A stretch of DNA of 64,000 nucleotides from Gemmatimonadales bacterium (GTDB taxonomy: Bacteria > Gemmatimonadota > Gemmatimonadetes > Gemmatimonadales > GWC2-71-9): assembly GCA_037189525.1 (NCBI GenBank), contig JBBCJC010000002.1:800001-864000 (forward strand), in the 5' to 3' direction. A program made the position numbers and the translations under genes. The first letter of the stretch is position 1. Every line of letters begins with the position of its first letter. Below are positions 401 to 59,303 of this stretch, piece after piece. Below the pieces are notes generated by a model. That model saw only the letters and a program-made list of their open reading frames with translations. It was not told the origin of the DNA and ran no database searches.

Positions 401-799
401 GTGTCGAATACCAATCGTCGCCGCCGGGGCGGTCCTGCCCCCAGTGCGGCCCGCAGCTCGGAAACTCTTCGTCGTACGGGCAGTAAATCCTATCAGGCCC
501 ACCGGGACGTCTTGATGGCTCGGTTCGGGCCGGTGTGTGCCTATTGCGGCGAAACCTTTGCGCCGGAAGAGATCACGCTGGACCATGTTCAACCGCGTAA
601 GGGCAAGGTCGCTTACGACCGGTCGGACAACCTGGTGCTGGCGTGTAAGACCTGCAACGCCGCCAAGGCCGATATGCCCTTCCTGGGCTTCCTGCTCGCG
701 CGGCGCTCCCGCGGGGTGTTCCTGCTCCACTATGGAGAGCATCTGTCCGAGGGCATCCGGCAGACCGTTCGGGACCTGGTCGAGAAACCGATCCTCTAA
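401..799 (+). CDS. HNH endonuclease family protein (zinc-binding)
   Basis: CAYC ... TLDHVQP ... [13 protein letters not shown] matches the CxxC...DH...N...CxxCN HNH signature. Its stop overlaps the convergent PPTase stop (796-799). Confidence 0.88.
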
Positions 800-1524
800 A
801 AATGCGGCGGCGGGGTCGGGTCCCCGCTCTTATGGATGCGGACCGACCAGGCGGGATCGGTCCGCGCGACCGCGGCTGCGTAGCCATCGGGCGCCTCGAT
901 CCAGGCGCCGTGGACCGGCGAGGTCCCTTGGTTGGTGACGATGGTGAAACGGTCGCCGGGCCGAGCCTCGTCGAACGCCACCGAAAAGGCTTCGAGCGGG
1001 ATCGACAGCCCGCCGCCTAACGCCTTGATGTAGGCTTCCTTGGCAACCCAGTGCTGATAGAAGAGCGTCCGATGCCGCGCCGGGTCGGCCGCCGCCAGGC
1101 GGGCTCGTTCGCGCGGTGAGAAGACCGTCTCGGCCAGTTCGAGCAGGTCGAAATGATCGTGGCCGTGTTCGATGTCGATGCCGACGTCATGGTCGAGGGT
1201 CAGCGCGATCAGCGCCTCTGACCCCGAGTGCGACAGGTTGAATCGGATCTGGCTGCCCAGGTGGGGTGCGAGTTCCGGTTTCCCGTGCGGGCCCGTGACG
1301 ATCTCGACGTCGGCGGGGGCGAGGTCCAGGTAACTGCCGAGCACCTGGCGAAGGGTGCCGCGGGCGGTGACGTAGACCGACCGGTCCTTGTCGAAGACGA
1401 AGCGGGCGGCGCGTGTTCGTTCCGCGGCGGTGAGCGTCGAGTGCAGCGCGGCGGGAACGGTGGCCGGTACCGAGACCGGCCAGACCTCGATCCGGTCAGT
1501 GTGAAGCGGCGGAGGCGGCGTCAC
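796..1524 (-). CDS. Sfp-type 4'-phosphopantetheinyl transferase
   Basis: Motifs GKPEL, FNLSHS, VGIDIE and WVAKEAYIKALG. Probable GTG start at 1524 (VTPPPPLH...); the ORF-track extension to 1668 lies inside the ABC gene. Confidence 0.93.
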   Translation of the reverse strand: MTPPPPLHTDRIEVWPVSVPATVPAALHSTLTAAERTRAARFVFDKDRSVYVTARGTLRQVLGSYLDLAPADVEIVTGPHGKPELAPHLGSQIRFNLSHSGSEALIALTLDHDVGIDIEHGHDHFDLLELAETVFSPRERARLAAADPARHRTLFYQHWVAKEAYIKALGGGLSIPLEAFSVAFDEARPGDRFTIVTNQGTSPVHGAWIEAPDGYAAAVARTDPAWSVRIHKSGDPTPPPHF

Positions 1525-3142
1525 GTTGCTCGCTTGGTCGCCAGCTGTCGACGATCTGGCCGTAGTCCAGTTTGATGACGCGGTCGCCCAGGTCGAAATA
1601 TCGATCGTCGTGGGTGATGACGACGACCGTCTTGCCGCGGGCCTTGAGCTCGGGCAGCAGCTCCGCATAGAAAATCTGCCGATAGCCCGGGTCCTGATCG
1701 GCGGCCCATTCGTCGAAGACGTAGACGGGACGGTCTTCCAGGTATGCCGCCATCAGGGCGAGCCGGCGTTTCTGTCCCTGTGACAGCGCCGTCGTCGACA
1801 GGACGCCGTCCTTCACGCTCACCTTGTGGTCGAGGCCCAGGCGCACCAGGTATTCACGGGCGCGGGTGTCGATATCGCCGTCGCCCAGACCGGTGACGTC
1901 GGGGAACAGGAAAAAGTCGGAGAAGACGGTTGCGAACTGCTGGCGATAGTTCTCGCGGTTCGCCGCGGTGACGGTCTCGCCGTTCAGCGCGATCGATCCC
2001 TCATCGGGTGGGTACAAGCCCGTCAGCAGTTTGACGAAGGTCGATTTGCCGCTTCCGTTGCCGCCGATGATGAAGACGAGTTCGCCGGGATGCAGCGTCA
2101 GGTCGACGGGGCCTAGTCCGAAGCCGCCGTTTGGATCGGAGCGATCGTAGCGGAAGGCCACGTTGCGGAACTCGATGGTGGCGCCGGGGCGATCCGTTCC
2201 GGCGAGTGGCGCATCTTCGGTGACGCGCTCCAGCGAGAGGCCGAGTTCGTCGATCCGGGCCAGCGCCGTCTGGCCGCGGTGGAAGATCGGAAGCGCGCCT
2301 AGCAGGGACCAGACGGGCCCCATGGCGTAGAGCGCCACGAAGGCAAACCCGGTCAATGATCGAGTCGAGGTCTCGAAGATGGCGGGCAGGGCAAAGAGCA
2401 TGACCCCCATGATCAGGAAGAACATGCTCTGGGTCCAGCCGTCGGCGGCGAGGTAGTGACGGGCCGCGTCGAGGCTCAAGCCGCGCAATCGCTCGGTCGT
2501 CTCCGGGATACTACCAGCCAGCAGATGATCGCGCCGCGCGCGATTCATCTTGATCTCTTTGATACCTTCCGTGATGGTGCGGTAGTGCCGGAACAGGACA
2601 TCGCGTTCGCGCCGCGCCGCGGTGATGGCTCCCGAAGCTCGGCGCATCAGCACTTTGTAGCCGAGCGCGGCCAGGATTCCGAAGATCACGAGCGCCAGCG
2701 CCGACGCCCATGAGAGAGCGGCGAGGTAGATGGTGCATCCCAAGAGCACCGCCGCATTGGTGATCACGGTCGGGATGGCCTGGACCGATGCGGAAAGGGT
2801 CCCGACGTCGTCCGTCAACGTGGTCATGATGCGGGCGGCGCCGATCTCTTCGAGCGTCCGGAACGGCGTTTCGACGACACGCGCACTGAGTTGATTGCAG
2901 AGGCGCAGGATTGCCTGCTGCGCATAGGTCGCGAGGTTCCACTGAGCAATCAGGTTGGTCGCGATGCGCGCCAGCGCGACGGCGATGAAGCCGACGACGA
3001 TCAGCGGGAGATTGGTGGTGTGGAGGGCGGCATTGACCAGCGCCACGAACCCGGCGCTGGCCAGGCCGCCGACGATACCGGCCAGGATGACGGTGATGAT
3101 GCCGCGTCGTCCGGTCCGGAACAGGAAGGCCAGCAGGTTCAT
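1496..3142 (-). CDS. Cyclic peptide export ABC transporter, fused permease/ATPase (PvdE/SyrD/YojI family)
   Basis: Hydrophobic N-terminal TM region, Walker A GGNGSGKST, signature LSQGQKRR, family-typical Walker B region FDEWAADQDP and ITHDDRYF. ATGA overlap with the NRPS stop. Confidence 0.92.
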   Translation of the reverse strand: MNLLAFLFRTGRRGIITVILAGIVGGLASAGFVALVNAALHTTNLPLIVVGFIAVALARIATNLIAQWNLATYAQQAILRLCNQLSARVVETPFRTLEEIGAARIMTTLTDDVGTLSASVQAIPTVITNAAVLLGCTIYLAALSWASALALVIFGILAALGYKVLMRRASGAITAARRERDVLFRHYRTITEGIKEIKMNRARRDHLLAGSIPETTERLRGLSLDAARHYLAADGWTQSMFFLIMGVMLFALPAIFETSTRSLTGFAFVALYAMGPVWSLLGALPIFHRGQTALARIDELGLSLERVTEDAPLAGTDRPGATIEFRNVAFRYDRSDPNGGFGLGPVDLTLHPGELVFIIGGNGSGKSTFVKLLTGLYPPDEGSIALNGETVTAANRENYRQQFATVFSDFFLFPDVTGLGDGDIDTRAREYLVRLGLDHKVSVKDGVLSTTALSQGQKRRLALMAAYLEDRPVYVFDEWAADQDPGYRQIFYAELLPELKARGKTVVVITHDDRYFDLGDRVIKLDYGQIVDSWRPSEQRDAASAASH

Positions 3143-7281: not shown

Positions 7282-7898
7282 CGAAGGCCGAATCGGGTGG
7301 AGGACGTGATCATAGGCACGAATCGACCTAAGAAGTGCAATTTCTATGCACCATAAGATATGGTGTTGCTTAGAGGCATCACCTTCGCGTCGTTTTGCGA
7401 GAAACCTCGCTTTCAGCGGTCGCCCTGATGGCCGGGGACCGGTCAATATGGTCGGGTCTGCCGGAGCGCCGGGTCTCACTTCCTGTTGTGTTGATGTAAG
7501 TTATTGTAATATATGTAGCTTACGGTTCAGGTCATGAGGGGATTCCTGGGAGAGAATCGGGGTCGGGCAGGAACCTGACATGCGGCGCTGAGACTACACT
7601 GGAGTGCTCAGTCGTTGCATGCGCGCGACGACGACGTTAATTGGGGCGTGGTGTTTCGCCTGCGATAGACCCGAACGCCGTTGTCGGTTCCGGGGAAACC
7701 GAGGGGATGGCTTTCCCCTCTCCCTCGGCACAGTCGTTGCCTTATCTATGGGGTTGCGGGAGTTCTGGCCCTCGTCGGTTTACCGGACCACCTAGCGAAT
7801 GACTTGCGTTCGGGGCGTCGAAGGCTGGCCCGCGCCGGGGTCTCGTTCGCCTCCGTTGGTGGGAAATCCGGGCGAGGTTGCACAACCAAGGGCACTCA
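7282..7898. promoter_or_regulatory. Divergent promoter/leader region between the NRPS operon and the PKS operon
   Basis: About 600 bp with no credible ORF and visibly AT-richer stretches (7320-7380, 7480-7530). Contains a perfect palindrome CACCATA-AGA-TATGGTG (7349-7365), an imperfect inverted repeat GTAAGTTA-N12-TAGCTTAC (7496-7523) and hairpin-forming sequence at 7692-7728. Confidence 0.7.
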
Positions 7899-8699
7899 AT
7901 GTTGCGTCGCGAAGAAATCCAGGCATCGAACGGCTGGGTAGTCGCTGTCGGACGGAATCCGGCGGCGACGGTGCGCCTGGTGTGCTTCCCGCCTGCCGGG
8001 ACCGGGGCCGCATCCTACCGCGGCTGGTCTGAGTCGGCGCCTGGGTGGCTCGAAGTCTGTGCCGTTCAGTTGCCTGGCCGGGAAACCAGACTTCGCGATG
8101 TCCCGATGACTGACCTCGATCGGCTGATCCCGGAGCTCGGGAAAGCGCTGTTGCCGGTTCTGGACCGGCCGTTTGCCTTTTACGGGCACAGCCTGGGCTC
8201 GATCATCGCGTTCGAGACGGCGCGATGGCTCCGGCACCAGGGTGCTCCGCTGCCCGCAGCCATGTTCGTCGGCGCCAGCCGTCCTCCCCAGTTTCCGTGG
8301 CCCGATCCGCCGGTTCGGGATCTGCCGGACCTCGAGCTGCTCGAGGAGGTCAATCGCCGCTACGACTCGGTGCCCGATGTCGTGATGGCGGAACCGGAAC
8401 TCCGCACGCTGCTCACGCCCGCGCTTCGGGCCGACATGGCGTTGATCGAGACCTACCGGTATCGATCCGAAATGCCCTTCGATTTTCCGATTCAGGCCTT
8501 CTGGGGCGCCGCGGACCGGAAGGTGGCGCAGGCGGATATGGCACAGTGGCAGGAGCAGACGCTTGGTGCGTTCGAGCTCCAGCGCTTTGCGGATGGGCAT
8601 CTTTTCCTGTTGCCTCGCCGGCAGGACATCGTTGCGGCAGTCGCATCGCTGCTGACCCGATCGATGGCGGTCGGGTCTGAACGTCCCGGACGCCCCTGA
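7899..8699 (+). CDS. Type II (editing) thioesterase
   Basis: LVCFPPAGTGA, VQLPGRETR, FYGHSLG nucleophile motif, LRAD and C-terminal GHLF. ATG 7899 preferred over TTG 7878. TGATG overlap with PKS1. Confidence 0.93.
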   Translation: MLRREEIQASNGWVVAVGRNPAATVRLVCFPPAGTGAASYRGWSESAPGWLEVCAVQLPGRETRLRDVPMTDLDRLIPELGKALLPVLDRPFAFYGHSLGSIIAFETARWLRHQGAPLPAAMFVGASRPPQFPWPDPPVRDLPDLELLEEVNRRYDSVPDVVMAEPELRTLLTPALRADMALIETYRYRSEMPFDFPIQAFWGAADRKVAQADMAQWQEQTLGAFELQRFADGHLFLLPRRQDIVAAVASLLTRSMAVGSERPGRP

Positions 8700-11600
8700 T
8701 GACGGACGGCGTGTCGCCACCTCGAATCGAACCTCGCGCTCGCGCGCCGATTGCGGTGGTGGGTATCGGCTGCCGGTATCCCGGTGGGATCGTCGACGCG
8801 GCGTCGTTTTGGCGCGTCGTCGCCGGCGGTGTCGACACGATTACCGACATCCCGGCCGATCGCTTCGATCTGGCGCGCTGGTACGATGCCAGACCCGGGA
8901 TGCCGGGGCGGATCGGCAGTCGCAAGGGCGGATTCGTTGGGCCGGTCGATCGCTTCGATGCCTATCTGTTCGGAATTTCGCCGCGGGAGGCGGAGCGGCT
9001 GGATCCGCAGCAACGGTTGCTGCTCGAAGTGGCCTGGGAGGCCTTTCTCGACGCCGGGATGGATCCGTCGGGTCAGGAGGGCAGCCGCTGCGGCGTCTAT
9101 GTCGGCCAGTGGGTCGGCGAGTACGAAAGCCGCCTCTTTGCCGACCCGACCACGATCGACTTCCACTCGACCCAAGGCACCGGGCGGTACGCCAGCTCCG
9201 GACGATTGTCGTACACGTTTGGATTGTGCGGACCGAGCGTGACGCTCGATACGGCCTGCTCGTCGTCGCTGGTTGCTACGCACCTGGCGATCAACAGCCT
9301 GCGGTCGGGCGAAACGAATGCGGCCCTGGTCGGCGGCGTCAATCTGATCCTGCAGCCGCACACCACGATTGCCTACTCGCGCGGCCGGATGATGGCCTCC
9401 GATGGCCATTCGAAGTTCGGCGATGCCTCGGCCAACGGCTATGTCCGGGCGGAGGGGGCGGCGGTGCTGCTGCTCAAGCGGCTCGATGACGCCGAGCGCG
9501 ACGGCGACCGAGTCTATGCCGTGCTGCACGGCAGCGCGATCAACAACGATGGGCGCAGTTCCGGATTGTTCGGGCGACCGAGCCGGAGCGGCCAGGTCTC
9601 GCTCCTGGTCGATGCGTATCGGGACGCGGGAGTTCCAGCGCAGCAACTGAGTTTCGTCGAAGCGCACGGAACCGGTACCCGGGCCGGCGATCCGGTCGAG
9701 CTCGATGCGCTGGCCGAGGTGGTGGGGCGGGAGCGATCGGCGCCGCTCTGGGTCGGGTCGATCAAAACCAACATCGGGCACACGGAAGCGGCGGCCGGTC
9801 TGGCTGGTCTGATCAAAGCATCGCTCAGCCTCTATCACGGGGTGGTGCCGCCGAGTCTGCATTTCCGCGAACCGACATCGTCGTTCGACTGGAGCGCCTC
9901 GTCGTTGCAGGTGCCGACGGCGGCGGTGACGCTGGAGGGCGATCGCGACCGGTGGCTCGGTGGGGTGACCTCGTTCGGGATCTCCGGCACCAATGCCCAT
10001 GTCGTCGTCGGAACCGGTCCTCAGCGCGCTCCGGTTCCGGTGCGCTCGGCTGGGCTATTGCTTCCTCTTGCCGCGCATATCCCCGCGGCCCTGGGTCAGT
10101 ACGCAAAGGCTCTGGCCGATCGGTTCGAGCACGCTACCGCAGCGGAAGTCGCGCGGACGGCCGCTGTGCTCGCTCGGCGGTCGAGTCTGCCCCATCGCGC
10201 CGCGATTGTGGGTGGCGACGTAGCCGCCGTAGTCGCCGGGTTACGCGCGCTGGCGGACGGTGAACCGGCGGCGGGCCTGGTTACCGGGGAAGCACCGATC
10301 GAGGGGCGGCATCGGACGGCGCTGGTCTTTCCGGGCCAGGGTGGGCAGTGGCTCGGCATGGGGCGGCGACTGCTCGAGACCGAGCCGGTGTTTGCGCAGA
10401 CCGTGGCGGCAATCGATGAGGTGCTTGCTCCGCTGGTCGACTGGTCTGTGACCGAGCAGCTGCAGCTCGATCCGGCCGATCCCACGTGGCAGCTCGATCG
10501 CATCGACGTGATCCAGCCCGTGCTGGTGGCGCTGGAGATGGCGTATGCGGCGCTGCTGCGCGACTACGGGATCCGGGCGGACGGCGTGGTCGGGCATAGC
10601 ATGGGCGAGGTCGGCGCCGCCTGGTATGTGGGTGCACTTTCGCTGGCTGATGCGATGACGGTCATCGTACATCGGAGCCGGCTGCTGCGCACTGTGGCCG
10701 GCGCCGGAGCGATGGCGGTGGTCGAACTTGGTGATGCCGATGCTCGCGCGGCTATCGGAGCGCGGACCGACCGAGTCGGTGTGGCAGTTCGGAATGCGAG
10801 CAACAGTTCGGTCTTGAGCGGTGATCCCGATGCGGTGGGCGAAATCATCGCTGAACTGGAAGCACGCGGCGTTTTCACCAGGTATGTGAAGGTCGATGTC
10901 GCTTCGCACAGCCCGCAGATGGATGCGCTGACGGGTCCTCTGGTCGACGCATTGGGCGCCATCGTGCCTGGAGCGACGGCGATCGCGATGTATTCGACCG
11001 TACTGGCTGAGCCGCTGGCTGGCAGCGGAACGACGGCCGCGTACTGGGGACAGAATCTTCGCGAACCGGTCCGCTTTGCGGAGACGATCGACCGGATGCT
11101 GGCCGACGGCTACGACACTTTCATCGAGGTTGGTCCGCATCCGGTGCTCACGTCGGCGGTGACGCGCGTAGCTGAGGATCGCGGCGCCGAGGTGCGGGTG
11201 TTGTCCACCGGCCGCCGGGATGAGGATGCTCAACTCGAGTTCCTCAATCTCCTGGGTGAGTGCCATGTCGCCGGCCTTCCGGTCGACTGGCATCGGGTCT
11301 ATCCCGGGCCGATCGACCACGATCTCGAGTTGCCGCCGTTTCCGATGGTGCGGGAGCGTTACTGGTTCGATCCGGGGCTCGAGGCCGTTACCGAGGGCGG
11401 GGCAACCGGTCATCCGCTCTTGGTTGCGCCGTTCGCCGCGGCAGTCGGTGTACGCGGCTGGGAAGCCTCGGCGCAGCGGATCGGAACGACGTGGCTCGCG
11501 GATCATGTGGTGCGGCAGTCGGTTCTCTGGCCCGCTGCGGCGAGTGCGGAAGGGTTGCTGGCCGCCGTGTCGGATGCGGCAGGCGGCAACTGGTTTCTGC

Positions 11601-31269: not shown

Positions 31270-31273
<4 letters not shown>
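26915..31273 (+). CDS. PKS4: KS-AT-cMT-ACP (no reductive domains)
   Basis: KS DTACSAS; AT GHSLG, HAYH; C-MT LEIGAGTGGTT, NAVHAT, GLIEGW; ACP GFDSL. No KR Rossmann motif between MT and ACP. Confidence 0.94.
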
Positions 31274-38813
<7,540 letters not shown>

Positions 38814-38817
<4 letters not shown>

Positions 38818-44800: not shown

Positions 44801-45362
44801 CGATCCGCAGACGATGGTCGCGAGTATCGATTGGTCTGTTCTGCGTCCCTTGCATGAGGCCCGTCGCACCCGTCCCTTGCTCGCGGCGCTGGTCACCCGC
44901 GCGGTCGCTCCAACGCCGGGCACACGGACGGCCGTGTCGGCGCGAGTCTCGCTCGAGGACCAGCTGAATCTGGCGCAGGGTTTGTCGCGTCGGGATGTCA
45001 TCCTGCGGTTCGTATCGGGCGAAGTCGCCGGGGTTCTCGGCCTGGAGGCTGGAGCGTTCGTTTCTCCGGCCGTCGGTCTGTTCGAACTGGGCATGGACTC
45101 GCTGATGTCGGTGGAACTGAAACGGCGGCTGGAACAGGGCACCGGGCGTACTCTGCCGTCGACCCTGACGTTCAACTATCCGAACGTCGGGGCGCTGACC
45201 GGGTTTCTGGAACAGCTCTTTCCCGAGCAAGCGCCGGATCCGATCGCCAATCCGTCGAATCGTGTTGGGCAATCTGGGCCGCCGGAATCGCAGCCCGATG
45301 CGAATGAGGACGTCGATGACATCGCCGCCCGGCTCCGCGCGGCGCTGGAGGATATCGGCTGA
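38814..45362 (+). CDS. PKS6: KS-AT(atypical)-DH-cMT-KR-ACP
   Basis: KS DTACSSS; AT GHSVG, ISLAAHS; DH DHRVFGRIIAP and HPTQLDAVLQ; C-MT LEIGAGTGGTT, NVLHAT, FGLTDGWW; KR GGFGGLG, lacks LDD, AHYAGAN; ACP GMDSL. Confidence 0.94.
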
Positions 45363-46264
45363 TGCCGGCGAGCCGGGTCGAACGATCGCTGGTAACGCGG
45401 TTAGGCGCGGGGCGCACCGCCGTTCTCGCCATGGCGATTGCCATGGTGGGATGGGTGGCGGTGGAGGCCGCGGGCGTAGCCGTGATTGCCAGGATTCCGG
45501 CCCTGCAGCTGATCTGGTCCCGGTATCTCGTCCATCTGCTGTTCATGGCGGTGTTCGTCATCCCCCGGGTGGGGACCGGATGCCTCCGAACCCGCCACCC
45601 GTTCGTCCAGATCGGCCGATCGCTGCTCATGCTCGGCATGCCGGCGGCCTGGCTTGCCGCGGCCGATCGGCTCAGTCTGAGCACGGTGATGGGCATCTTC
45701 TGGCTGACCCCGATCGTGGCCATGGTCGGTGCGCTGATCTTCCTGCGCGAGCGTGTAACGGTTAGCCAGATTGCCATCGCCGGGGTCGGGTACGCAGCGA
45801 CCGTTGCGATCCTTCGGCCCGCCTTTCCAGGGGATCTCCTCGGCGTGCTACTGGTCGGGGCGATGCTCGGCTGCTTCGCGGGGTACATCGTGCTGACCCG
45901 GTGGCTCCGGCGCGAGCCGACGGAGACCAATCTGTTCTATACGGCGCTGGGTGTCTTTGTCGCCATGCTCGTGTTCATTCCCTCGATCTGGCAACCGGTG
46001 CCCACCGAGTTGTGGCTCCCGATCGTCGCGATCGGCCTGCTGGGGTACCTCGTGCTGCATCAGCTCGATCGCGCGCTTCACCTCGCCCCGGTGGCATTCG
46101 TGGCGCCGGTGGTGTTCCTTCAGCCGCTGCTCGAGGTCATGGTCCGCGCCGGGAAGAACCCGGGCGCGCTGATTCTGCGACAATGGGTCGGTTTTGCGAT
46201 GCTCCTGGCGGTCGGATTCGTGGTGCTGCGTCTGGCGCGAGATGTGCGCGAGGAGGCCGTATGA
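45362..46264 (+). CDS. DMT/EamA family membrane transporter
   Basis: 300 aa, very hydrophobic, with roughly ten TM-like segments in two similar halves and EamA-like motifs (LIWSRY, QIGRSLL, FWLTP...FLRERV). Overlaps both neighbours (TGATG and ATGA). Confidence 0.85.
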
Positions 46265-49200: not shown

Positions 49201-52200
49201 GCCGAGCACGGGGGCTCCCCGATTCTGGTCGACAATTTCGAGATTGCGCAGCCTCTGATTCTCCGGGAGGGCGAGCGGTCTCTGGTGCATGTCACCCTCA
49301 CGCGCGACGCAATCGGCGCCACGGCGTCGATTGCTTCGTCGTCGGGTGATACGACGCAATGGCGCGACCACGCGACCGCACGGGTTCGGGTTGGCAGTCC
49401 GGCCGCTTCCAATCAGGCCGGGCCGTTTGTTCAGGTTCGCGGTGCAGGGTCGACCACCGTCGATGTGCCCGCCTATTACGATGCCTGCGCAGCCCTCGGC
49501 CTGGAGTACGGTCCGACGTTCCGGGGTCTCGAGGCGCTGGGCTTTGGTCCCGACGGCGCGTGGGGCACGATTGCCGTTCCGTCGGACGCCGCCGACGGTA
49601 GCGCCTGGATCCTGCACCCCGCCGTACTGGATGCCTGCTTTCACGTGCTCGGCGCGCAGCTGATGCATGAAGCCCAAGGTCAGGCTCGCCGCATCTACCT
49701 CCCTGTCGGCATCGACCAGGTCGCGGTATTCGGTGCCGTCGGGCGCCGAGTGCATTGCAGTGCGCGTGTCGTCCCGGCCTCGAGCGATGCCGGGGTTCGC
49801 CAGGTCGATCTGCGTCTCGAAGATGAGCAAGGTCTGGTCGTTGCGCTGATCACCGGCCTGCGGTTACGGGCAACCGATCCGGATCAGGCGCGGCAGCTGC
49901 TCCAGGCCGAGGGAACCAAGCCCGAAGGGCTAGTGCGCAGCTGGGATCAGTTGACCGATGTCAAATCGCCGCCCCGGCTGGCGGGCCACACGGTGCTGAT
50001 CGGTGCGAGCGACGGCGTGGCCGGAATGGTGGCTATCGACTGGATGACGCGCGGCATCGGATGCGACATCATTGCCCCTCAGGAGATTGCGGGGCTGGAC
50101 CGGGCGGGGCTGGCTGCCCGTATGGCCGGTCCCGACGGCGCCGCTCCGGTCTGGGTCATCGACTGCGCGGCAACCGACCTCGATGCATGGACCGGCGGCG
50201 ACCCCGAGGCGGAATCCGCGCGGCAGTTCGAACGGTTCCTGACGGTGAGCCAGACGCTGGTGGAGGCCTATCCGTCGGCGGGGCTCGGCCTCGTGACCCG
50301 GGTCGCTCACGGCGTCGTTCCCACCGATCGTCCCGATGTCCGGCAGGCAACGCTTCTGGGTCTGGCTCGAACGGCCGCGGTCGAACGATCGGGAGCGCCA
50401 GCGTTCCGGCTCGATCTGGCATCGGACGACGATCTCAATCCTGCGGAAGCCCTGCTGCTCGCCATCGCGAGGTGTGGTGAGGATGGCGAAACGGCAGTGC
50501 GTGGCAAGCGAACGTTCGGGGACCGGCTCGATCCGTCGGTTGCGCTCGAGGGCGCGGGGCGGCGTTCGGTCCTCCGGATTCGTGAGCGCGGGGTGCTCGA
50601 GAATCTCGACGTTGCCGTCGAGAATCGCCGCCGCCCCGGGGCGGGTGAGGTCGAGATCGAGGTGCGTGCCGCTGGCCTCAACTTCCGTGATGTCCTGAAC
50701 GCGCTCGGCGCGTATCCCGGCGATGCGGGACCACTCGGCAGCGAATGCAGCGGTCTCATCGTCGCTGTCGGCGAGGGTGTCGAGGGTCTGTCTCCGGGCG
50801 ACCGGGTCGTGGCCTTTGCCTCGGAATCGATCGCCTCGCATGTGACCACCTCGGCGGAACTGGTGTTGCGTTTGCCGGATCACGTCGATTTCGATGCCGC
50901 GGTCGCGATTCCCAATGCCTACGTCACGGCCAGCTATGCGCTGGAGGCGGTGGCCGGGTTGCGCTCCGGGCAACGGGTCCTGATTCACGCGGCGGCCGGT
51001 GGAGTCGGTCTCGCGGCCGTGCGGTTGGCGCGCAGCCTCGGTGCGGAGGTGATTGCGACCGCCGGGTCGCCGGAGAAGCGAAGCCGCGTCCTGGCTGAAG
51101 GCGCGATGCGGGTCTTCGATTCCCGTTCGCCGGATTTTGCGGATGCGGTGCTCGAAGTCACCGGCGGCAAGGGTGTCGATGTCGTCCTCAACTCGCTGGC
51201 AGGCCCCTTCATTGCCGAGAGCTTCCGCGCGCTCGCGCAGGGCGGTGTGTTTCTGGAGATCGGCAAGAGCGGGATCTGGACTCCCGACGAAGCTGCCGGC
51301 CGCGCTCCGGGTGTTCGCTATGAGATCATCGATGTGGGACAGGTCATCCAGACCGACCTGCCGGTGATTCGACGCATCTTCGAGCGCGCGGTCGAGCGCG
51401 TGGCGTCTGGAGAGTGCCCGGCGCTGCCGACCGAGCCCTTTGCCCTCGACGATGCGGTCGCAGCGTTTCGTCACATGGCCATGGCCCGCCACGTCGGGAA
51501 GATCGTCCTGCATCCCAAACGCAGCGTGACGATCCGCGGTGACGCGACCTATCTCGTCACGGGCGCATTCGGCGGGCTCGGTTGGGCAATGGCCGAATGG
51601 CTCGTGGACAATGGCGCCCGACATCTGGTGCTGGTCGGTCGGCGGGGTGGAGCAGGGCACGAGGTCGAGATCGGAGCACTGGTGGCGCAGGGCGTGACCG
51701 TCCATGCGGTGGCTGCGGATGTCGGAAGCCGGGCAGCCGTTGCGCGCATCTGGCAGGATGTGCTGACCAGGACGCCGCCGCTCCGCGGGATCGTGCATGC
51801 GGCCGGCGTGGTGGACGACGCATTGCTTCCGTTGCAATCTCGAGAGCGCTACGACACCGTTGCGGGCCCCAAGTCGATTGCGGCGTGGCACCTTCATGAC
51901 GCCTCACGCGGCAACGAATTGGACTTCTTCGCGCTCTTCTCTTCGGCGTCGGCTGCGATGGGAGCGCCCGGGCAAGCCAACTACGCCGCGGCCAATGCGT
52001 CGCTCGACACGCTGGCGAGCTGGCGGAGGCGTGAGGGTCATCCGGCCACCAGCATTGCCTGGGGTCCATGGGCTGAAGTCGGAATGGCCGCGCGAGTAGA
52101 CGAATCGGCGCGACGCCGGTGGGCCGAGATCGGTCTGACGCCGATTACGCCCGAGGTGGGTCGCGCTGCGTTCGGTGCAATCCTGGCAGCCGATACGGAG

Positions 52201-52716
52201 TATGTCGCCGTCCTGGCCATGGATCGGACTCGATTCGGCCGGCAGGCGAGTCCAGCACTTCGGTCGCTGCTTCGATTGTCCGGTGCCGAAGGGGGGCCGT
52301 CCGCCAGTGGCGACGGTGCGCTCGAAGCCGAACTCACTGCCCGGCGCGGGCGTGCGCGCTACGACTATCTGGCCGATCGGATTCGCGGGCAGGTCTGCGC
52401 GGTGCTCGGCCTGTCTGATACGCAGCTGGCGTCGGACAATGAAGGGTTGACGGTGCTCGGGATGGACTCGTTGATGGCGATGGAACTGCGGACCCGACTG
52501 CAGCAGCTCACGGGACGTTCCTTCCCGGCCACCATCGCGTTTGAGCACCCCACCGTGGCGGCGCTGACGACCGTGGTACTGTCGGCGCTGGCGTTGCCGG
52601 ATGACGGGCCGGAGGACTCGGGAGACTCGACCGACGGTACCGAAGACGAGGCTGATCTCGCGGCGGATGAGATTGCCCGGCTGCTCAACGAAGAACTCGA
52701 TCGCGGGGGATTCTGA
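46261..52716 (+). CDS. PKS7: KS-AT(malonyl)-DH-ER-KR-ACP (about 2151 aa)
   Basis: ATG 46261 has a GAGGAGG SD and a docking helix ([24 protein letters not shown]). [33 protein letters not shown] and [42 protein letters not shown]. Confidence 0.95.
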
Positions 52717-52720
52717 CCGC

Positions 52721-55700
52721 ATGACCGATCCGAAGACCGATCGCGGTACGGATGCCGCCGCGCTGCGTCGTGCGTTAGGCGCGATTCGTGACCTGCGAAG
52801 CCGGCTGGATCAGGCGGAGCGGGCCAGCCGGGAGCCGATTGCCGTGGTGGGGTTGGGCTGCCGCTTCCCCGGTGGCGCCGATACGCCGGAGCGGTTGTGG
52901 GAGATCCTCGAGAACCGTCGCGACGTCGTCCGCGAAGTGCCGCGCGACCGCTGGGACATCGATGCCTTTTACGATCCGAATCCGGAAGCGGTGGGTCGGA
53001 TGTACTGTCGGGACGGCGGATTCCTCGATTCGCCGCTCGATCGGTTCGACTCCCGGTTCTTTGCGATGCCGCCCCGGGAAGCCCGAAGCCTCGATCCGCA
53101 GCAGCGCCTGATCCTCGAAACGTCGTGGGAAGCGCTCGAGCATGCGGGCATCGCACCCGCGAGCCTGGCGGGGACGGACGTGGGCATTTTCGTCGGCGTG
53201 AGCTCGAGCGACTATGGCATGATGCGGCAGCGGTATGCCGACGGCAAAGAGCTCGATCCGTACATGGGCACCGGTGGGGCCTTCAGCACGGTGTCCGGCC
53301 GGGTGGGTCACTTCCTGGGCGTACACGGGCCCAATCTGATCCTCGATACCGCCTGCTCGTCCTCGTTGGTGACGATTGCGCTTGCCGTGCAGTCGCTGCG
53401 GGCCGGCGCGTGTTCGCTGGCGCTGGCGGGCGGCGTCAATGTCATGCTGTCGCCGTACACCACGGTGCTGATGTGCAACCTCCGCGCGCTGTCGCCCACC
53501 GGGCGGTGCCGCAGCTTCGAGAGCCGGGCCGACGGATACGTGCGCGGTGAAGGGGCCGGGATGGTGGCCTTGAAGCGCCTGTCCGACGCCGAGCGAGATG
53601 GCGACCGGATCATGGCCGTGATTCGTGGCGTGGCGATCAATCACGACGGCCGCAGCTCCGGGCTCACGGTGCCTAACGGCGCGGCGCAGCAGCGGGTCAT
53701 CCGGGCAGCGCTCGAGGATGCCGGCCTGTCGCCGGACGAGGTGCAGTACGTCGAGGCGCACGGGACCGGAACCGCCTTGGGCGATCCGATCGAGGTCCGC
53801 GCGCTGGGTGAGGTCTTTGCGCGCGGAAACGGCGCTCCGCCGCTCCTGGTCGGCGCGATCAAGACCAACATTGGCCACCTCGAAGCGGCGGCCGGCATCT
53901 CCGGCGTGGCCAAGTGCCTGCTGGCGCTCGAGCACGATCTGATTCCTCCGCAGATCCATTTCGAAACGCCAAGCCCGCATGTCGACTGGGAGGCTGTGGG
54001 GGTCCGGGTGGTTGCGGAGCCGACGGCGTGGCGTCCCGGTCGCCGGATTGCGGGGATCAGCGGCTTCGGCATCAGCGGGACCAATGCGCATCTGATTTTC
54101 GAGTCCGCCCCTGCTCGTACCCGCGAGCCGGCCGCGCCCTATCCGATCCAGGTCGTTCCGGTCTCGGGGGTAACGACCCAGGCTGTTGCCGACCTGGCAG
54201 GCCGATTCGCTGACCGTCTGGATGCCGCGCCGCTGCCGCTCGGTGATGTGGCGGCGACCGCCGCGCTCGGCCGCTCACACTTCGATACCCGGGCCGCGAT
54301 TGTCGCTGCGGACGCCGAGGAGGCTGCCGGCAAACTGCGCCGACTGGCGGCTGGAACCGGAGACGGCGTCGTGACCGGCACGGTGGGCGCGGCGCCTCGG
54401 ATCGCGTTCATGTTCACCGGTCAGGGGTCGCAGTACGTCGGGATGGCCCGGGCGCTCTATCAGTCGTTGCCCGCCTTCCGCGCCGCGGTCGATCGCTGCG
54501 CGGAATCGATCGATCCCCGCCTGACCGTTCCCCTCAGGCAGGCCCTCTTCGAGGGAGACGACAACGCCCAAGCCGCGATCCATCAGACCGCGCTGACGCA
54601 GCCGGCGCTGTTCGTCGTCGAATATGCCCTGGCCGATGTCCTTCGCGGTCTAGGCATTCGCCCCGACGTGGTGCTTGGCCATTCGATCGGTGAGTATGTC
54701 GCAGCCGTCGTGGCGGGGGCGTTGCCGCTCGAACAGGCGCTCGCGCTGGTGGTCGAACGCGGGCGACTGATGCAGAGCACCGCCGCGGGCGGAGCAATGG
54801 CAGCGGTTGCGCTCGATCAAACGTCGGTTGCGGCGCTCTGTGCGCAGCACGGGGTCGATCTGGCTGCCGTCAACGGGCCGGCCAGCTGTGTCATTGCCGG
54901 CGCGGCCGAGGCCGTCGATGCCGCCGTGGCAGCAGCCAAGGCGCGAGGCGCGCGTGCGACGAGACTGACCGTCTCTCACGCCTTTCATTCCCGGCTGATG
55001 GACCCGATCCTCGATGCCTTCGAGCAAGCGGCCGAGGGGCTCACGGCGACCGACCCGGCCGTGCCGGTCATTTCCAATCGGACGGCAGCTGCGCTGACTC
55101 GCCAACAACTCCAGGATCCCAAGTACTGGCGCGACCACCTTCGCGGTACCGTCCGGTTCGCGGATGGCGTGGCTGAGCTGGCCCGCCGCGGGGTCGATCT
55201 GGTCGTCGAAATCGGGCCGACCCCGGCATTGACTCCCGCGGCGACCGAGTCGTATCCGGAATCCAGCGTGCGCTGGCTTTCGACCCTCCGAAAGGGGCGG
55301 GATGACTGGCGCGCCTTCGGTGAATGCCTGGCCGGTTTGTACGTCGCCGGAGCGCCGATCGACTGGAAGCGCTGGATTGGGCCGCAGAACGGTGAGCGGG
55401 TCCCGATGCCCAGCTACCCATTCCAGTCGGAGCCGCTCTGGATTGGCTGGACGCCCCCGCGTCCCTTCGATGTCGAGTGGTCCGAGCGTAAGGGCGGGGC
55501 CCTGATCCGGCAGAGCGGACACCATCCGTTAATCGGTGGCCGGCTCGATAGCGCCATGACGATCCATCAGGGTGCCATCGACCTGAGCGAACTTCCCTAC
55601 CTGGCCGACCACCGGATCTATGACGTTGCCCTGTTTCCGGGAACCGGTTTCCTGGAAGTCGCCTTGGCGTCACTCGGCGACGGTCAGCAAACGGACCTGC

Positions 55701-58700
55701 CGCTGGTACGTAATGTCTCGGTCGTACAGCCGCTGCTGTTGGATGACGATGCACCGAGTGCGCTGCAGGTGGTTCGATCGCCGGATGGCAGGCAGCTGCA
55801 GATCTTCGGCCGCGCCGGTCAGGACGGTGGAGACGCCACTTGGACACTGCACGCGTCGGCGGAAATCGGAGACCGCTTCGCAGGTCCCGCTGCCGACATC
55901 AAGTCTGTCGAGTCGGTTGCCGCCCGTTGTGACGAGCGCATCGACGTGGCGGCGCATTACGCGCGTCTGGCCGAGGTCGGCGCCAACTACGGTCCGGCAT
56001 TTCAGGGCATTGCGCAGCTGACCCGCCACGACGGCGAGGCGCTGGCCAGGTTGGCGCTGCCCGCGTCGGTGCGCGACGGAGCCGCCGACTATCTCGTCCA
56101 CCCGGCCCTGCTCGATGCGGCCCTCCAGGCCTTGTCCGCGGCCGTACCGACCGATGTCGCGAGCGGGTTGACGGAGATCTTCGTTCCGGTCGGGATGGAG
56201 CAGGTTCGGGTGCACCGCGCTGGCGTTGCGGACGCCTGGTGCCATGTCACCCTCACGACGGCGCTGTCTGCAGCGTCCGATTCGTTGCGGGCCGATATCG
56301 TGCTGACCGCGGACGACGGCGCGCCCGTCATCGAGATCCGCGGCCTCGAAGCGCGGCGGATCAGTCGGGCCACGCTGGTACGGCTGCTTGGTGCACGCGC
56401 CGAGCGGGCGTTGACGTACGAAGTGGCCTGGCGCGCGGTCGATGCGCCGGCCGCCCCGAGCGACGAATCGAAGGGCAGCTGGCTGATCGTGGGCGACGAC
56501 GCATCCCTGACTGCCGATCTGGCGGGTGAACTCGGCCGGCTCGGACACCGCGTCCATCGGGCCGCGTTCGGTACCGTCCTCGATACGGGATCAGAAACCT
56601 GGACCGTCGATCCCACTGATCCGAGCCAGGTCCGCAGTCTGGTCGACGCGCTGCACGCAGGAGGCGCCACGGTTCGCGGGGTGGCCTATCTGCCCGAGGC
56701 ACACGATGCATTGGCGTCCGACCAGAACGATGATGCAGCGCTTCGCCGGTCGCGGCAGCTCGCGGGTCTGTTTCATCTTGCGCAGCAGCTGGCGGACGGG
56801 CGCGGTTGGTTGCTCACCCGAGGTGCGACGCCTGCCGCGGGTACCGTACCCGACCCGGATCAAGCGGCCCTCTGGGGCCTAGCAGGTGTGGCCGCAGCCG
56901 AGTACCCGTCGACCGGTTGGCGCCGGATCGATCTCGATCCCGCTCTGGCATCTCCTGACAATGCGGTGCGGGCCGCGGCGGCGCTGCTCGCGACCGACGA
57001 GGAAACCCAGATCGCCTTGCGCGGCGCCGTGCGCTATGCACCGCGCTTGGTGAGAAAAACGGTCACACCGGTTTCCGATGCGGTGAGCCTCGAGATCCGA
57101 AATCGCGGGATGCTCGAGAACCTGTCACTCGACGCCTTGAATCGGGCAGCGCCCGGGCCGCGTGAGGTCGAGATCCAGGTCCACGCCTCGGGCCTCAATT
57201 TCCGGGACGTCCTCAACGCGCTCGGCATGTATCCCGGCGATCCCGGTCCGCTCGGCAACGAGGTGGCCGGTATCGTCACCGCCATTGGCGCCGAGGTCAC
57301 GACGCTGTCCCTCGGCGACGAGGTCATCGCGATGCCTCGGCGCGGGATGGCGAGCTACGTCATCGCCTCCGAAACGCTCACGGTTCGCAAACCGGCGTCG
57401 CTCTCGTTTGCCGAGGCGGCGACCATCCCGGTCACGTTCCTGACGGCCGATTTCTCTCTCCATCGTCTTGCGAAGCTTGCTCCAGGGCAGCGGGTTCTGA
57501 TCCATGCCGCCACCGGTGGCGTCGGTATGGCGGCGATTCAGCTCGCCAAGCGCGCGGGCGCGGAGATCATCGGCACGGCGGGATCGCCGGCCAAACGGGC
57601 GCTGGCGCGACAGCTGGGCGCCGACCATGTCTTCGACTCGCGGTCGGTCAGTTTTGCGAGCGATGTGGAGCAGCTCGTCGGGTCGCGAGGTGTGGATGTC
57701 GCCGTCAATTCGCTGGCCGGAGACTTCATTCCGGCGACCCTGCGCCTGATTCGTGAGGGCGGCCATTTCATCGAACTGGGCAAGACCGGAGTCTGGGACG
57801 AAGCCTCCGTGGCGCGCGAGTACCCTGGGGTCGGCTACCACGTCTTCTTCCTGGGCGAGGTCGCGGTCACCGATCCGGAGTTGGTCCGCAGCCGGTTGCT
57901 TGCGCTGCTGGCGGACTTCGAGTCGGGCGCGCTGACGCCGTTGCCGCAGCATGTCTTCCCGCTGTCGGAAGCAATCGACGCCTTCCGGTTCATGGCGCAA
58001 GCCAAGCATACCGGCAAGGTGGTGCTGACGCAGCGCCATGGCCCGATCGTGCGCGACGATGCCAGCTACCTGATTACCGGGGGGCTGGGTGGACTCGGGT
58101 TGGCGGTCACCGGGTGGCTGGCCGATCAGGGCGCGCGCCACCTTGCATTGATCGGGAGACGGGCGCCCTCGGCCGAGGCTGCCGATACGCTCGCTGCGCT
58201 CCGCGACCGCGGAGTTCGCGTCGAAGTCTTCCAGGCGGATATCTCGGTCGCGGCCGACGTTGCCCGCGTCATGGATCGGGTGAAAGCCACCATGCCCGCG
58301 CTCCGCGGCGTCGTGCATGCGGCCGGGGTCCTCGACGACCGGACCATTGCCGAACAGCAATGGGCGTCGTTCCCGGTGGCGTTGGCGCCCAAGGTCGACG
58401 GCAGCCTCAATCTGCATCGGGCCACGGCGGGCCTGCCGCTCGATTTCTTCGTGCTGTTCTCCTCGGTGGCGCCGCTCTTCGGTTCGCCGGGGCAGAGCAG
58501 CTATGCGGCCGGCAACAGCTTCATGGACGGCCTGGCACACGCGCGCCGCGGCCGAGGTCTGCCAGCTCTGAGCATCAACTGGGGTAGTTGGGCGGAAGTG
58601 GGCATGGCGGCCGGGGTGGATGAGGCGCACCGCCGTCGATGGGCCTCGATGGGAATGGAGATGCTCCGGCCCGATGAGGCGCTTGCCACGCTGGGTCGTC

Positions 58701-59242
58701 TGCTGGGAGGCAATGCCGGCGCCCAGGCGGCGGTGATTCCGATCGTGGCGAATAAGCTCGGCGGCGGACGGCCCAATCCCTTCCTGAGCGAACTGGTCCG
58801 GACCGCGCCGGCCGCTCCGTCTGCTCGAGGGAACATCCGCGCTCGGCTCGGCGAGGTCGCGCCCGATCAGCGTCTGCCGATGTTGATCGATCATCTGCGC
58901 GGGCAGCTCGCGCAGGTGCTGGCGCTCGACCTCGCCGCGGTCGACGCCGACCGGTCTATCGTCGAGTTGGGTCTCGACTCGCTGATGGCGATGGAGCTGC
59001 GGAATCGTCTGGAGTCGCAGCTCAAGCTTGCCGTCCCGGTTGCGGACCTCCTCGAAGGTCCGTCGCCCCGCCGGCTCGCAACCATCGTGGCCGATCGGAT
59101 GCAGCTGGGCACCGATGCCGGCTCCGAAACCAGCGCCGAAGACGAAGCGGCGCGACTGCTGGAACAGATCGACGAGCTTTCCGAGGCAGATCTGGATGCG
59201 CAGCTCGCTCGGCTGCTGGCCGAACGGGGCGATCCGTCGTAG
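52721..59242 (+). CDS. PKS8: KS-AT(malonyl)-DH-ER-KR-ACP with C-terminal docking helix, no TE (about 2173 aa)
   Basis: ATG 52721 follows the PKS7 stop after a 4-nt gap. KS DTACSSS; AT GHSIG, HAFH; DH DHRIYDVALFP and HPALLDAALQ; ER HAATGGVG; KR GGLGGLG, LDD, GQSSYAAGN; ACP GLDSL; ends LLEQIDELSEADLDAQLARLL. Confidence 0.95.
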   Translation: MTDPKTDRGTDAAALRRALGAIRDLRSRLDQAERASREPIAVVGLGCRFPGGADTPERLWEILENRRDVVREVPRDRWDIDAFYDPNPEAVGRMYCRDGGFLDSPLDRFDSRFFAMPPREARSLDPQQRLILETSWEALEHAGIAPASLAGTDVGIFVGVSSSDYGMMRQRYADGKELDPYMGTGGAFSTVSGRVGHFLGVHGPNLILDTACSSSLVTIALAVQSLRAGACSLALAGGVNVMLSPYTTVLMCNLRALSPTGRCRSFESRADGYVRGEGAGMVALKRLSDAERDGDRIMAVIRGVAINHDGRSSGLTVPNGAAQQRVIRAALEDAGLSPDEVQYVEAHGTGTALGDPIEVRALGEVFARGNGAPPLLVGAIKTNIGHLEAAAGISGVAKCLLALEHDLIPPQIHFETPSPHVDWEAVGVRVVAEPTAWRPGRRIAGISGFGISGTNAHLIFESAPARTREPAAPYPIQVVPVSGVTTQAVADLAGRFADRLDAAPLPLGDVAATAALGRSHFDTRAAIVAADAEEAAGKLRRLAAGTGDGVVTGTVGAAPRIAFMFTGQGSQYVGMARALYQSLPAFRAAVDRCAESIDPRLTVPLRQALFEGDDNAQAAIHQTALTQPALFVVEYALADVLRGLGIRPDVVLGHSIGEYVAAVVAGALPLEQALALVVERGRLMQSTAAGGAMAAVALDQTSVAALCAQHGVDLAAVNGPASCVIAGAAEAVDAAVAAAKARGARATRLTVSHAFHSRLMDPILDAFEQAAEGLTATDPAVPVISNRTAAALTRQQLQDPKYWRDHLRGTVRFADGVAELARRGVDLVVEIGPTPALTPAATESYPESSVRWLSTLRKGRDDWRAFGECLAGLYVAGAPIDWKRWIGPQNGERVPMPSYPFQSEPLWIGWTPPRPFDVEWSERKGGALIRQSGHHPLIGGRLDSAMTIHQGAIDLSELPYLADHRIYDVALFPGTGFLEVALASLGDGQQTDLPLVRNVSVVQPLLLDDDAPSALQVVRSPDGRQLQIFGRAGQDGGDATWTLHASAEIGDRFAGPAADIKSVESVAARCDERIDVAAHYARLAEVGANYGPAFQGIAQLTRHDGEALARLALPASVRDGAADYLVHPALLDAALQALSAAVPTDVASGLTEIFVPVGMEQVRVHRAGVADAWCHVTLTTALSAASDSLRADIVLTADDGAPVIEIRGLEARRISRATLVRLLGARAERALTYEVAWRAVDAPAAPSDESKGSWLIVGDDASLTADLAGELGRLGHRVHRAAFGTVLDTGSETWTVDPTDPSQVRSLVDALHAGGATVRGVAYLPEAHDALASDQNDDAALRRSRQLAGLFHLAQQLADGRGWLLTRGATPAAGTVPDPDQAALWGLAGVAAAEYPSTGWRRIDLDPALASPDNAVRAAAALLATDEETQIALRGAVRYAPRLVRKTVTPVSDAVSLEIRNRGMLENLSLDALNRAAPGPREVEIQVHASGLNFRDVLNALGMYPGDPGPLGNEVAGIVTAIGAEVTTLSLGDEVIAMPRRGMASYVIASETLTVRKPASLSFAEAATIPVTFLTADFSLHRLAKLAPGQRVLIHAATGGVGMAAIQLAKRAGAEIIGTAGSPAKRALARQLGADHVFDSRSVSFASDVEQLVGSRGVDVAVNSLAGDFIPATLRLIREGGHFIELGKTGVWDEASVAREYPGVGYHVFFLGEVAVTDPELVRSRLLALLADFESGALTPLPQHVFPLSEAIDAFRFMAQAKHTGKVVLTQRHGPIVRDDASYLITGGLGGLGLAVTGWLADQGARHLALIGRRAPSAEAADTLAALRDRGVRVEVFQADISVAADVARVMDRVKATMPALRGVVHAAGVLDDRTIAEQQWASFPVALAPKVDGSLNLHRATAGLPLDFFVLFSSVAPLFGSPGQSSYAAGNSFMDGLAHARRGRGLPALSINWGSWAEVGMAAGVDEAHRRRWASMGMEMLRPDEALATLGRLLGGNAGAQAAVIPIVANKLGGGRPNPFLSELVRTAPAAPSARGNIRARLGEVAPDQRLPMLIDHLRGQLAQVLALDLAAVDADRSIVELGLDSLMAMELRNRLESQLKLAVPVADLLEGPSPRRLATIVADRMQLGTDAGSETSAEDEAARLLEQIDELSEADLDAQLARLLAERGDPS

Positions 59243-59266: not shown

Positions 59267-59303
59267 AGAAGGGGCCGGTCTCTGTGTGAGACCGGCCCCT
59301 TCT
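59267..59303. terminator. Probable bidirectional terminator hairpin closing the PKS operon
   Basis: Perfect 16-bp stem AGAAGGGGCCGGTCTC-TGTGT-GAGACCGGCCCCTTCT between the convergent PKS8 and amidohydrolase stops; U-tracts are short. Confidence 0.8.

Follow-up and report, generated by a model that had tools for sequence, protein, structure and literature searches.

Which product does the assembly line encoded at positions 796..59242 of a 64,000-nucleotide stretch of Gemmatimonadales DNA (contig JBBCJC010000002.1, positions 800,001 to 864,000; the window) make? A first-pass annotation had described an orphan hybrid of a polyketide synthase (PKS) with a nonribosomal peptide synthetase (NRPS) for a polymethylated, highly reduced acyl-amino acid. 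With the open reading frame (ORF) list and Pfam, we confirmed eight single-module PKS genes of the cis-acyltransferase (cis-AT) type, an NRPS with condensation, adenylation, thiolation and thioesterase domains (C-A-T-TE), a type II thioesterase (TEII), a phosphopantetheinyl transferase (PPTase), an ABC exporter and an EamA transporter, and our data support a colinear line whose polymethylated acyl chain is amidated with one amino acid. We propose, at a probability of roughly 0.5, that the line makes a methyl-branched spiroketal acyl chain joined, for export, to an amino acid resembling glutamate or aminoadipate. That the product is an acyl-amino acid of some kind is very likely. The acyl chain of the earlier description thus stands, but with OH, C=O and OH at C15, C11 and C7 a cyclic ketal is predicted instead of a highly reduced chain. 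The domain content, the motifs, the module order across the family and the mosaic ancestry were read directly, and the chemical outcomes given below are predictions drawn from them. The modules (M1 to M8), built from ketosynthase (KS), AT, dehydratase (DH), C-methyltransferase (cMT), enoylreductase (ER), ketoreductase (KR) and acyl carrier protein (ACP) domains, together with the genes for release and export, are as follows.

8699..15055, plus strand: M1, KS-AT(VASH)-DH-ER-KR(LDD)-ACP, from Pfam and alignments
15052..20691, plus strand: M2, KS-AT(YAFH)-cMT-KR(non-LDD)-ACP, predicted alpha-methyl, beta-hydroxy (C15-OH)
20688..26918, plus strand: M3, KS-AT-DH-ER-KR-ACP, KR catalytic Ser is Ala, predicted saturated
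26915..31273, plus strand: M4, KS-AT(HAYH)-cMT-ACP without KR, predicted C11 ketone, probably gem-dimethyl at C10
31270..38817, plus strand: M5, KS-AT-DH-cMT-ER-KR(Tyr to His)-ACP, predicted methyl/saturated
38814..45362, plus strand: M6, KS-AT(LAAH)-DH(eroded)-cMT-KR(non-LDD)-ACP, predicted methyl/hydroxyl (C7-OH)
46261..52716, plus strand: M7, KS-AT-DH-ER-KR-ACP, absent from the seven-module sister alleles
52721..59242, plus strand: M8, KS-AT-DH-ER-KR-ACP with C-terminal docking helix
3139..7281, minus strand: terminal NRPS, C-A-T-TE, 1380 aa, C motif HHIISDG, A code DPRHCGGQLK, TE motif GGCMGG
1496..3142, minus strand: cyclic-peptide-export (PvdE/SyrD-type) ABC transporter, TIGR01194 at 470.7 bits against a cut-off of 286.2

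In alignments, the KS Cys-His-His, AT GHS and ACP DSL motifs are each present in 8/8 modules, so that every module has a KS, its own AT and an ACP with intact catalytic residues; no frameshifts or internal stops were found in the cluster. By domain content, M2 to M6 read hydroxyl, CH2, ketone, CH2 and probable hydroxyl, with four positions clear from the domains and the fifth dependent on an idle DH in M6 (DH6). Hydroxyl, carbonyl and hydroxyl at C15, C11 and C7 would be the pattern of a 6,6-spiroketal precursor, a prediction from domain content to which we give even odds; C15-OH and C7-OH would each be positioned for six-membered ring closure onto C11. In the proposed mechanism, a short acyl starter would prime KS1, M1 would add methylmalonyl and reduce it fully, M2 would leave an alpha-methyl/beta-hydroxyl unit, M3 would reduce fully, M4 would methylate, probably twice, and keep the ketone, M5 would methylate and reduce fully, and M6, with a DH that is probably idle, would methylate and leave a beta-hydroxyl. 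M7 and M8 would contribute a (CH2)4 spacer, with M8 docking on the NRPS; the C domain would then make the amide, the TE, which has a Cys nucleophile (Cys-TE), would release or transfer the product, and the ABC transporter would export it. The outcome would be a C18-type acyl chain with methyls at C6, C8, C10 (one or two), C14 and C16 counted from the amide carbonyl, for example C29H51NO7 with an acetyl starter, six methyls and Glu ([M-H]- 524.359). The five to six methyls counted earlier hold as a minimum, and seven are possible.

The modules that would lay down this pattern recur as a unit in other bacteria. We examined 20 clusters in at least five phyla (denoted below by genome number where necessary). 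By an M4 scan of GTDB species followed by domain annotation, the same core was found in Rhizobacter sp. OV335, Chelatococcus reniformis, Rhodopila, Polyangiaceae, Steroidobacteraceae, Verrucomicrobiota, a deltaproteobacterium and Gemmatimonadales, and in part in Ardenticatenaceae. The first nine clusters (and a fragment, G049) were picked after viewing neighbours, and a held-out set was drawn afterwards from a search of the order with the M4 methyltransferase (MT4) only, in which 12 of 401 genomes matched; the eight with an MT4-type best match were taken, and G385 and G261 were left out. All eight held-out clusters have a KR-only module, then DH-ER-KR, then a KR-less MT module, then DH-MT-ER-KR, and the fifth module is MT-KR without ER in the seven where it is visible. 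The held-out clusters are kin rather than independent samples; the module order also holds across phyla. In the family, the upstream methyl/OH unit is built either by a methylmalonyl AT with a KR or by a cMT with a KR, and because this unit arises by two module designs, selection on the product is suggested. Heads and tails vary, and most relatives have Gly-coded NRPS modules.

Searches for a known product returned no characterised match in the papers and databases covered (mainly open-access literature; MIBiG not included), in agreement with the first-pass annotation, and the literature searched, with subscription journals mostly outside it, held no named product of the family. Among 120 listed M4 homologues, 61 were full length at 48-59% identity, with generic names or none. 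A metagenome scan with the A domain gave two weak matches only, and a plasmid search gave best identities below 50%, with no family member among the matches listed. An Antarctic Gemmatimonadales cluster, BGC2, was published as a possible siderophore cluster (PMC8692599, available in part), with neither module chemistry nor an analysis of the family in the portion consulted; judged from its description, it very probably belongs to this family. Siderophore features (chelator-forming enzymes, a TonB receptor) were not found between the boundaries of the window's cluster by ORF list and Pfam.

The state of DH6 decides between a spiroketal and its closest rival. Counting cassette positions from M2, the DH His, Pro, Asp and LP proline are intact in 18/18 DHs at position 2 and 19/19 at position 4. 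At position 5, the DH is missing in 5/19 clusters and the LP proline is lost in all 14 that remain, with loss of the His in two, loss of the HxxxGxxxxP Pro in three, and one more cut by a frameshift. DH6 of the window is without its HPLLG and LP motifs, and KR6, like KR2, lacks the LDD motif. Furthermore, KS7 falls together with KS3, the KS that comes after DH-less M2 (SH-aLRT support of 95 in a quick KS tree and 76 in a second tree), and the two share an xTTx loop; KS domains are described, in the accessible part of the source, as co-migrating with and selecting upstream chemistry through this loop (PMC11321453). These data suggest that M6 probably leaves a hydroxyl, with DH6 idle, rather than the alkene named first in the earlier annotation.

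Several points weigh against this. DH6 retains the catalytic His, the motif Pro and the Asp, and a dehydrated, possibly Z, product is possible. The KS loop motifs here differ from the published actinomycete ones, and the loop is read by analogy. No spirocyclase gene was found between the boundaries (ORF list, Pfam), and several spiroketal pathways use one (PMC6490886, in the portion consulted); in what is available of the proposal for pteridic acids, however, the dihydroxy-ketone closes spontaneously and no spirocyclase is required (PMC10652019). The alternative that survives best is the same line with DH6 active, giving a C6-C7 alkene and letting C15-OH and the C11 ketone close to a single hemiketal ring only. 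In addition to the intact residues, it is favored by the position-5 DHs of G021, G005, G042, G136 and G168, which are a conserved subtype with His and Asp that pairs with LDD-type KRs in G021, G005 and G042. In the window, however, KR6 is non-LDD and the two DH motifs are lost, the DH is missing (G043, G046) or has no His (G048, G050) in close orthologues, and KS7 resembles KS3; we therefore regard an active DH6 as rather unlikely. Even then, oxa-Michael closure onto the enoyl intermediate could still yield a spiroketal.

We turned to the terminal NRPS for the amino acid and the mode of release. The A-domain code DPRHCGGQLK is identical in G021 and reads DPRHCGFQAK in G005. DPRH-type codes occur in McyE (Glu) and Lys2. 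In published tables, as far as the accessible portions extend, aminoadipate is assigned to DPRHLALLAK and Asn to DPRHVSLLAK (PMC12283262, PMC3547906). The NRPS likely activates an acidic, Glu/aminoadipate-like amino acid, as judged from this code, although the exact code was not found in the literature searched. The TE has a Cys nucleophile (GGCMGG) and keeps the Asp, but has GGDSG where canonical TEs have GDH, so that Ser replaces the catalytic His and the Ser/Cys-Asp-His triad is incomplete, a further point against the proposed release. Its predicted model has a confident TE fold (pLDDT 88). In a search of a 1.8-billion-protein set, 23/214 TE-like domains had the His-less loop, all 23 with Cys, and by sequence the His-less Cys-TE is a conserved clade. 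A PvdE-type exporter is present in 7/7 family clusters with this TE. A literature search on turnover by His-less Cys-TEs found nothing. The terminal TE is thus non-canonical, and simple hydrolytic release is not a given. Elsewhere among the TE-like proteins (P0273, P0279, P0281 and others), tandem TE-like domains with an Asp, Gly, Ala or Asn nucleophile were seen.

With such a TE, the acyl-amino acid might instead be handed to a surface acceptor, e.g., an exopolysaccharide (EPS), with the Cys-TE as acyl carrier or transferase and the locus varying in the manner of capsule loci. In the family, nine clusters end in a TIGR03100/03101-related (exosortase-A-associated) hydrolase pair and nine in a TE, none has both, and two have neither in the range fetched; the TIGR matches of the hydrolase pairs fall below curated cut-offs. 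This mutual exclusion, the Wzx flippases or EPS genes flanking G042, G043, G046, G047, G048 and G050, a hydrolase pair within an EPS locus on host contig C1, and the 43-65% identity of the cluster proteins to sister species against 90-98% for the flanks would all fit transfer to the surface. On the other hand, the window's cluster has neither a glycan gene nor the hydrolase pair found in 9/20 family clusters, a small-molecule exporter accompanies the Cys/His-less TE in all seven cases, a self-starting NRPS-PKS of their own precedes the C1 hydrolases, and the TIGR matches stay below cut-offs. Transfer to a surface acceptor is thus unlikely here; it concerns the fate of the product and is compatible with a spiroketal chain. 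The C1 locus itself (C1:223364-236789, L134-L135) encodes A-PCP-C-A-PCP and KS-AT-KR-DH-PCP proteins (PCP, peptidyl carrier protein) and then the hydrolase 2/1 pair in an apparent exosortase/exopolysaccharide locus, with a 10/10 sigma-54-type site at C1 239176. We rejected it as a missing tail of the window's line, as it opens with A-PCP and has no acceptor C domain. Units like it filled many actinomycete matches of the GTDB M4 scan.

The spiroketal acyl-amino acid also presupposes that the line starts with a short acyl unit and is used colinearly. AT1 carries VASH, the methylmalonyl AT signature (PMC7327777, seen in part), and the genome encodes methylmalonyl-CoA mutase homologues; the other ATs are malonyl-like, with AT6 (LAAH) unusual. 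Considered as the sign of a special extender, LAAH is set against two orthologues with a dead AT at that position and the lack of extender-supply genes in the cluster. In G043 (L103-L106) and G046 (L123-L126), the AT motif of the fifth cassette module is lost (GDADG/GSADG) in otherwise cis-AT lines, implying loading in trans as far as sequence can tell. No loading module or KSQ was found, since M1 opens with an active-Cys KS and has no ACP, AT or fatty acyl-AMP ligase (FAAL) before it. Other first modules of the family are likewise without a loading domain, and KS1 falls in a family-wide first-module clade that has no docking helix. We infer a short acyl starter priming KS1.

Non-colinear use (a long fatty acyl-CoA priming M1, iteration of M1, or skipping of M7) would give longer or shorter lipids. 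It draws on the domain order of M1, which is that of mycocerosic acid synthase (MAS), on the lack of a loading domain and N-terminal docking helix in M1 and of a FAAL in the cluster, on MAS among the PDB matches of KS1, and on the similarity of the N-terminal docking helices of M7 and M8 and of the C-terminal helices of M1 and M8. Against it, KS1 groups with family first modules that are mostly KR-only and unlikely to iterate, and its match to MAS is no better than those to DEBS or CurL; we consider non-colinear use quite improbable. The docking helices are consistent with gene order, and the C-terminal tail of M8 matches the last module of G021/G005.

The methylation and reduction steps were examined in the same way. 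The best PDB matches of MT4 are the C-methyltransferases CurJ (E 1e-62) and DisA, AprA MT2 was also matched, and no PKS O-methyltransferase was among its 20 PDB matches; an N(V/A)xHAT motif is common to all four methyltransferases, which by sequence are all C-type, as claimed earlier. On the same CurJ/DisA matches and C-MT motif, an O-methyltransferase reading of M2 and M4 was rejected. MT4 orthologues form their own clade in a tree. The malonyl-AT Phe position has a small residue in 7/10 M4 orthologues, many of them YASH-like. Epothilone module 8 is a gem-dimethylating module. The small residue suggests, by analogy with this module, that M4 probably leaves a C11 ketone with gem-dimethyl at C10, the likelier of the two options (mono- or gem-dimethyl) in the first-pass annotation. 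An inactive KR5 was rejected, as its Tyr-to-His change is found in 9/9 DH-MT-ER-KR modules and is a known active variant (PMC7327777, in part). The change goes with KRs of the LDD type whose module also holds a C-methyltransferase; the MT-less orthologues (G043, G046) keep Tyr. For M3, saturated is likelier than the keto alternative considered earlier, although KR Ser-to-Ala can abolish activity according to the same partly available source. The least probable rivals, an inactive KR3 (a C13 ketone, 1,3-diketone with C11) or a line stalled by a dead TE in a decaying cluster, have in their favor the Ser-to-Ala change of KR3 and the His-to-Ser change of the TE, but are very unlikely given that KR3 has Ala in 9/11 orthologues, all with an intact DH and with an ER, that the His-less Cys-TE is a conserved clade, and that all frames are intact.

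We further investigated the ancestry of the cluster. The nearest relatives, G021 (complete) and G005 (on two contigs), carry a seven-module line at the same chromosomal site, so that "orphan" remains apt for the product but not for the cluster, which belongs to a cross-phylum family and has seven-module alleles in two sister species. Among the window, G021 and G005, proteins of the flanks share 90-98% identity. From M5 onward, identity is 36-52% between the window and G021/G005 and 76-83% between G021 and G005. KS5 groups with G021/G005 (SH-aLRT 99), and its placement with G044 is rejected (p 7e-5). The remainder of M5 and the whole of M6, by contrast, reject the G021/G005 grouping (approximately unbiased [AU] test, p 4e-5, 5e-4 and 7e-8), and the identity crossover falls directly after KS5; the trees are quick LG+G4 ones and the tested groups were chosen after viewing identities, so these p-values are somewhat optimistic. 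For EamA, M7 and the M8 KS-AT, the closest counterpart is a block in G280, which belongs to another family of the order (EamA 43% versus 29% for G021). In G280 (L146-L147), EamA and two reducing modules are inverted and converge on the rest of the line. M8 as an orthologue of the last G021 module was rejected for its KS-AT (AU p 2e-6); its ER, KR and ACP favor neither lineage (p 0.25-0.37). Taken together, these comparisons suggest that the back half of the cluster likely derives from a different lineage than the front half. M1 to M4 are also more diverged than the flanks, with an older exchange or fast evolution possible. An assembly chimera was rejected as the cause, because independent activated-sludge contigs, ~97-98% identical, cross the joints; the stretches covered run from KS5 into the remainder of M5, from M5 to M6 and from M6 through EamA to M7, with no single piece spanning all, and contigs from the same sludge metagenome cover the cluster front. 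The three alleles at one chromosomal site thus offer a natural experiment in assembly-line recombination, with a lineage switch just after the KS, where the updated module boundary falls.

A broader proposal, which we advance tentatively, is that the five-module spiroketal cassette is a common uncharacterised PKS unit of Gram-negative soil and sludge bacteria, set on swappable heads and tails, with blocks exchanged post-KS, and terminating in hydrolase pairs by which the lipid is attached to exopolysaccharide or, alternatively, in an undescribed His-less Cys-TE with its own exporter. If true, this would make the products a new class, either spiroketal lipo-amino acids or glycan decorations. 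The family includes cultured strains (Rhizobacter sp. OV335, Chelatococcus reniformis), so the chemistry is testable without growing the Gemmatimonadales host, and two of its enzymes, the loader-free starter KS and the Cys thioesterase without the catalytic His, lend themselves to enzymological tests.

The remaining features, including those at the boundaries, are as follows.

515-799: small HNH-domain gene, left flank, 96-98% conserved among three sister genomes
796..1524, minus strand: Sfp-type PPTase, Pfam ACPS and AASDHPPT_N, probable GTG start at 1524
7726..7740, plus strand: sigma-54-type (-24/-12) promoter-like site, about 150 bp before TEII
7878..8699, plus strand: TEII (GHSLG), Pfam Thioesterase
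45362..46264, plus strand: EamA/DMT transporter, Pfam EamA, within the probably imported block
59267..59303, no strand: 16-bp perfect inverted repeat between M8 and the amidohydrolase gene, a probable terminator from the sequence

The eight PKS genes occupy 8699 to 59242 of the plus strand, TEII preceding them as in most family clusters and EamA lying between M6 and M7; the NRPS, ABC exporter and PPTase genes are divergent on the minus strand. Gene starts were corrected to 7281 (NRPS), 46261 (M7), 52721 (M8) and probably 1524 (PPTase, 1668 from the ORF caller). As claimed earlier, both cluster edges lie within the window, and no oxidase, glycosyltransferase, halogenase or regulator is among the genes inside the boundaries by ORF list and Pfam. 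The left boundary is the HNH gene followed by transketolase, and the right boundary is the inverted repeat followed by amidohydrolase and sucA. Since a single contig holds transketolase and sucA at a distance of 0.6-4.7 kb in 15/19 other genomes of the genus (the remaining four having the two genes on different contigs [three] or no transketolase match [one]), the cluster is an insertion; its NRPS is present in 3/22 genomes at E<=1e-90. The sucA gene (window 60691-63999 and beyond) encodes an N-terminal E2-like acyltransferase domain (fused KGD-type enzyme). A PPTase query gave the window's gene as the sole tblastn match in the genome; an enterobactin/bacillibactin-like NRPS set with iron-uptake-like neighbours (C2:1087117-1096733, L137), with no window-type PPTase match nearby, may use it.

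The sigma-54-type site is a 9/10 match to the consensus, expected by chance at about 0.007 per 500 nt in the host genome, and is kept in G021 and G005. Of 19 TEII upstream regions across the wider family, those of the three sister genomes and of G361 are the only ones with a 9/10 site. A sigma-54 activator model has 11 matches in the genome. Regulation probably acts in trans through this putative promoter, and the site together with the genomic activators may explain the absence of a regulator in the cluster.

Finally, we compared the line with known systems. It shares single-module proteins and embedded SAM-dependent C-methylation with cis-AT lines of the curacin (CurJ)/gephyronic acid type but differs in module order and termini, and the gephyronic acid line is not known to include an NRPS. 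Epothilone module 8 and yersiniabactin HMWP1 are gem-dimethylating KS-AT-MT-ACP modules without KR; in the window, by contrast, the ketone is flanked by two fully reducing and two predicted hydroxyl modules. Calcimycin is a PKS-programmed 6,6-spiroketal, and we saw no sign of homology between the window and known 6,6-spiroketal lines beyond generic domains. ObiF and SulM are NRPS thioesterases with a Cys nucleophile which, like AB3403, keep the catalytic His. The window TE shares the GxCxG elbow and TE fold with AB3403 (PDB 4ZXH), but its His position is Ser (DSG). The pteridic acid (PMC10652019) and ossamycin/oligomycin (PMC6490886) lines, as far as the available parts of these papers describe them, also lay down a dihydroxy-ketone with their module string but are actinomycete, multimodular and methylmalonyl-using, with no comparable amino-acid terminus, and ossamycin-type clusters, unlike the window, carry a candidate spirocyclase. 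Lagriamide/bistramide, in the accessible part of PMC6018673, combine a spiroketal with two glycine NRPS modules, which recalls the Gly-PKS-Gly tails of several relatives, but are made by trans-AT lines of 17 modules with a spiroacetal proposed to form post-PKS. The nearest published case, by its description in the available part of PMC8692599, is BGC2, which is product-less and has a hydrolase tail rather than C-A-T-TE, but has a PPTase, TEII, six PKS and two NRPS modules and an alpha/beta hydrolase, and whose best PKS matches include Rhizobacter sp. OV335, itself in our family set.

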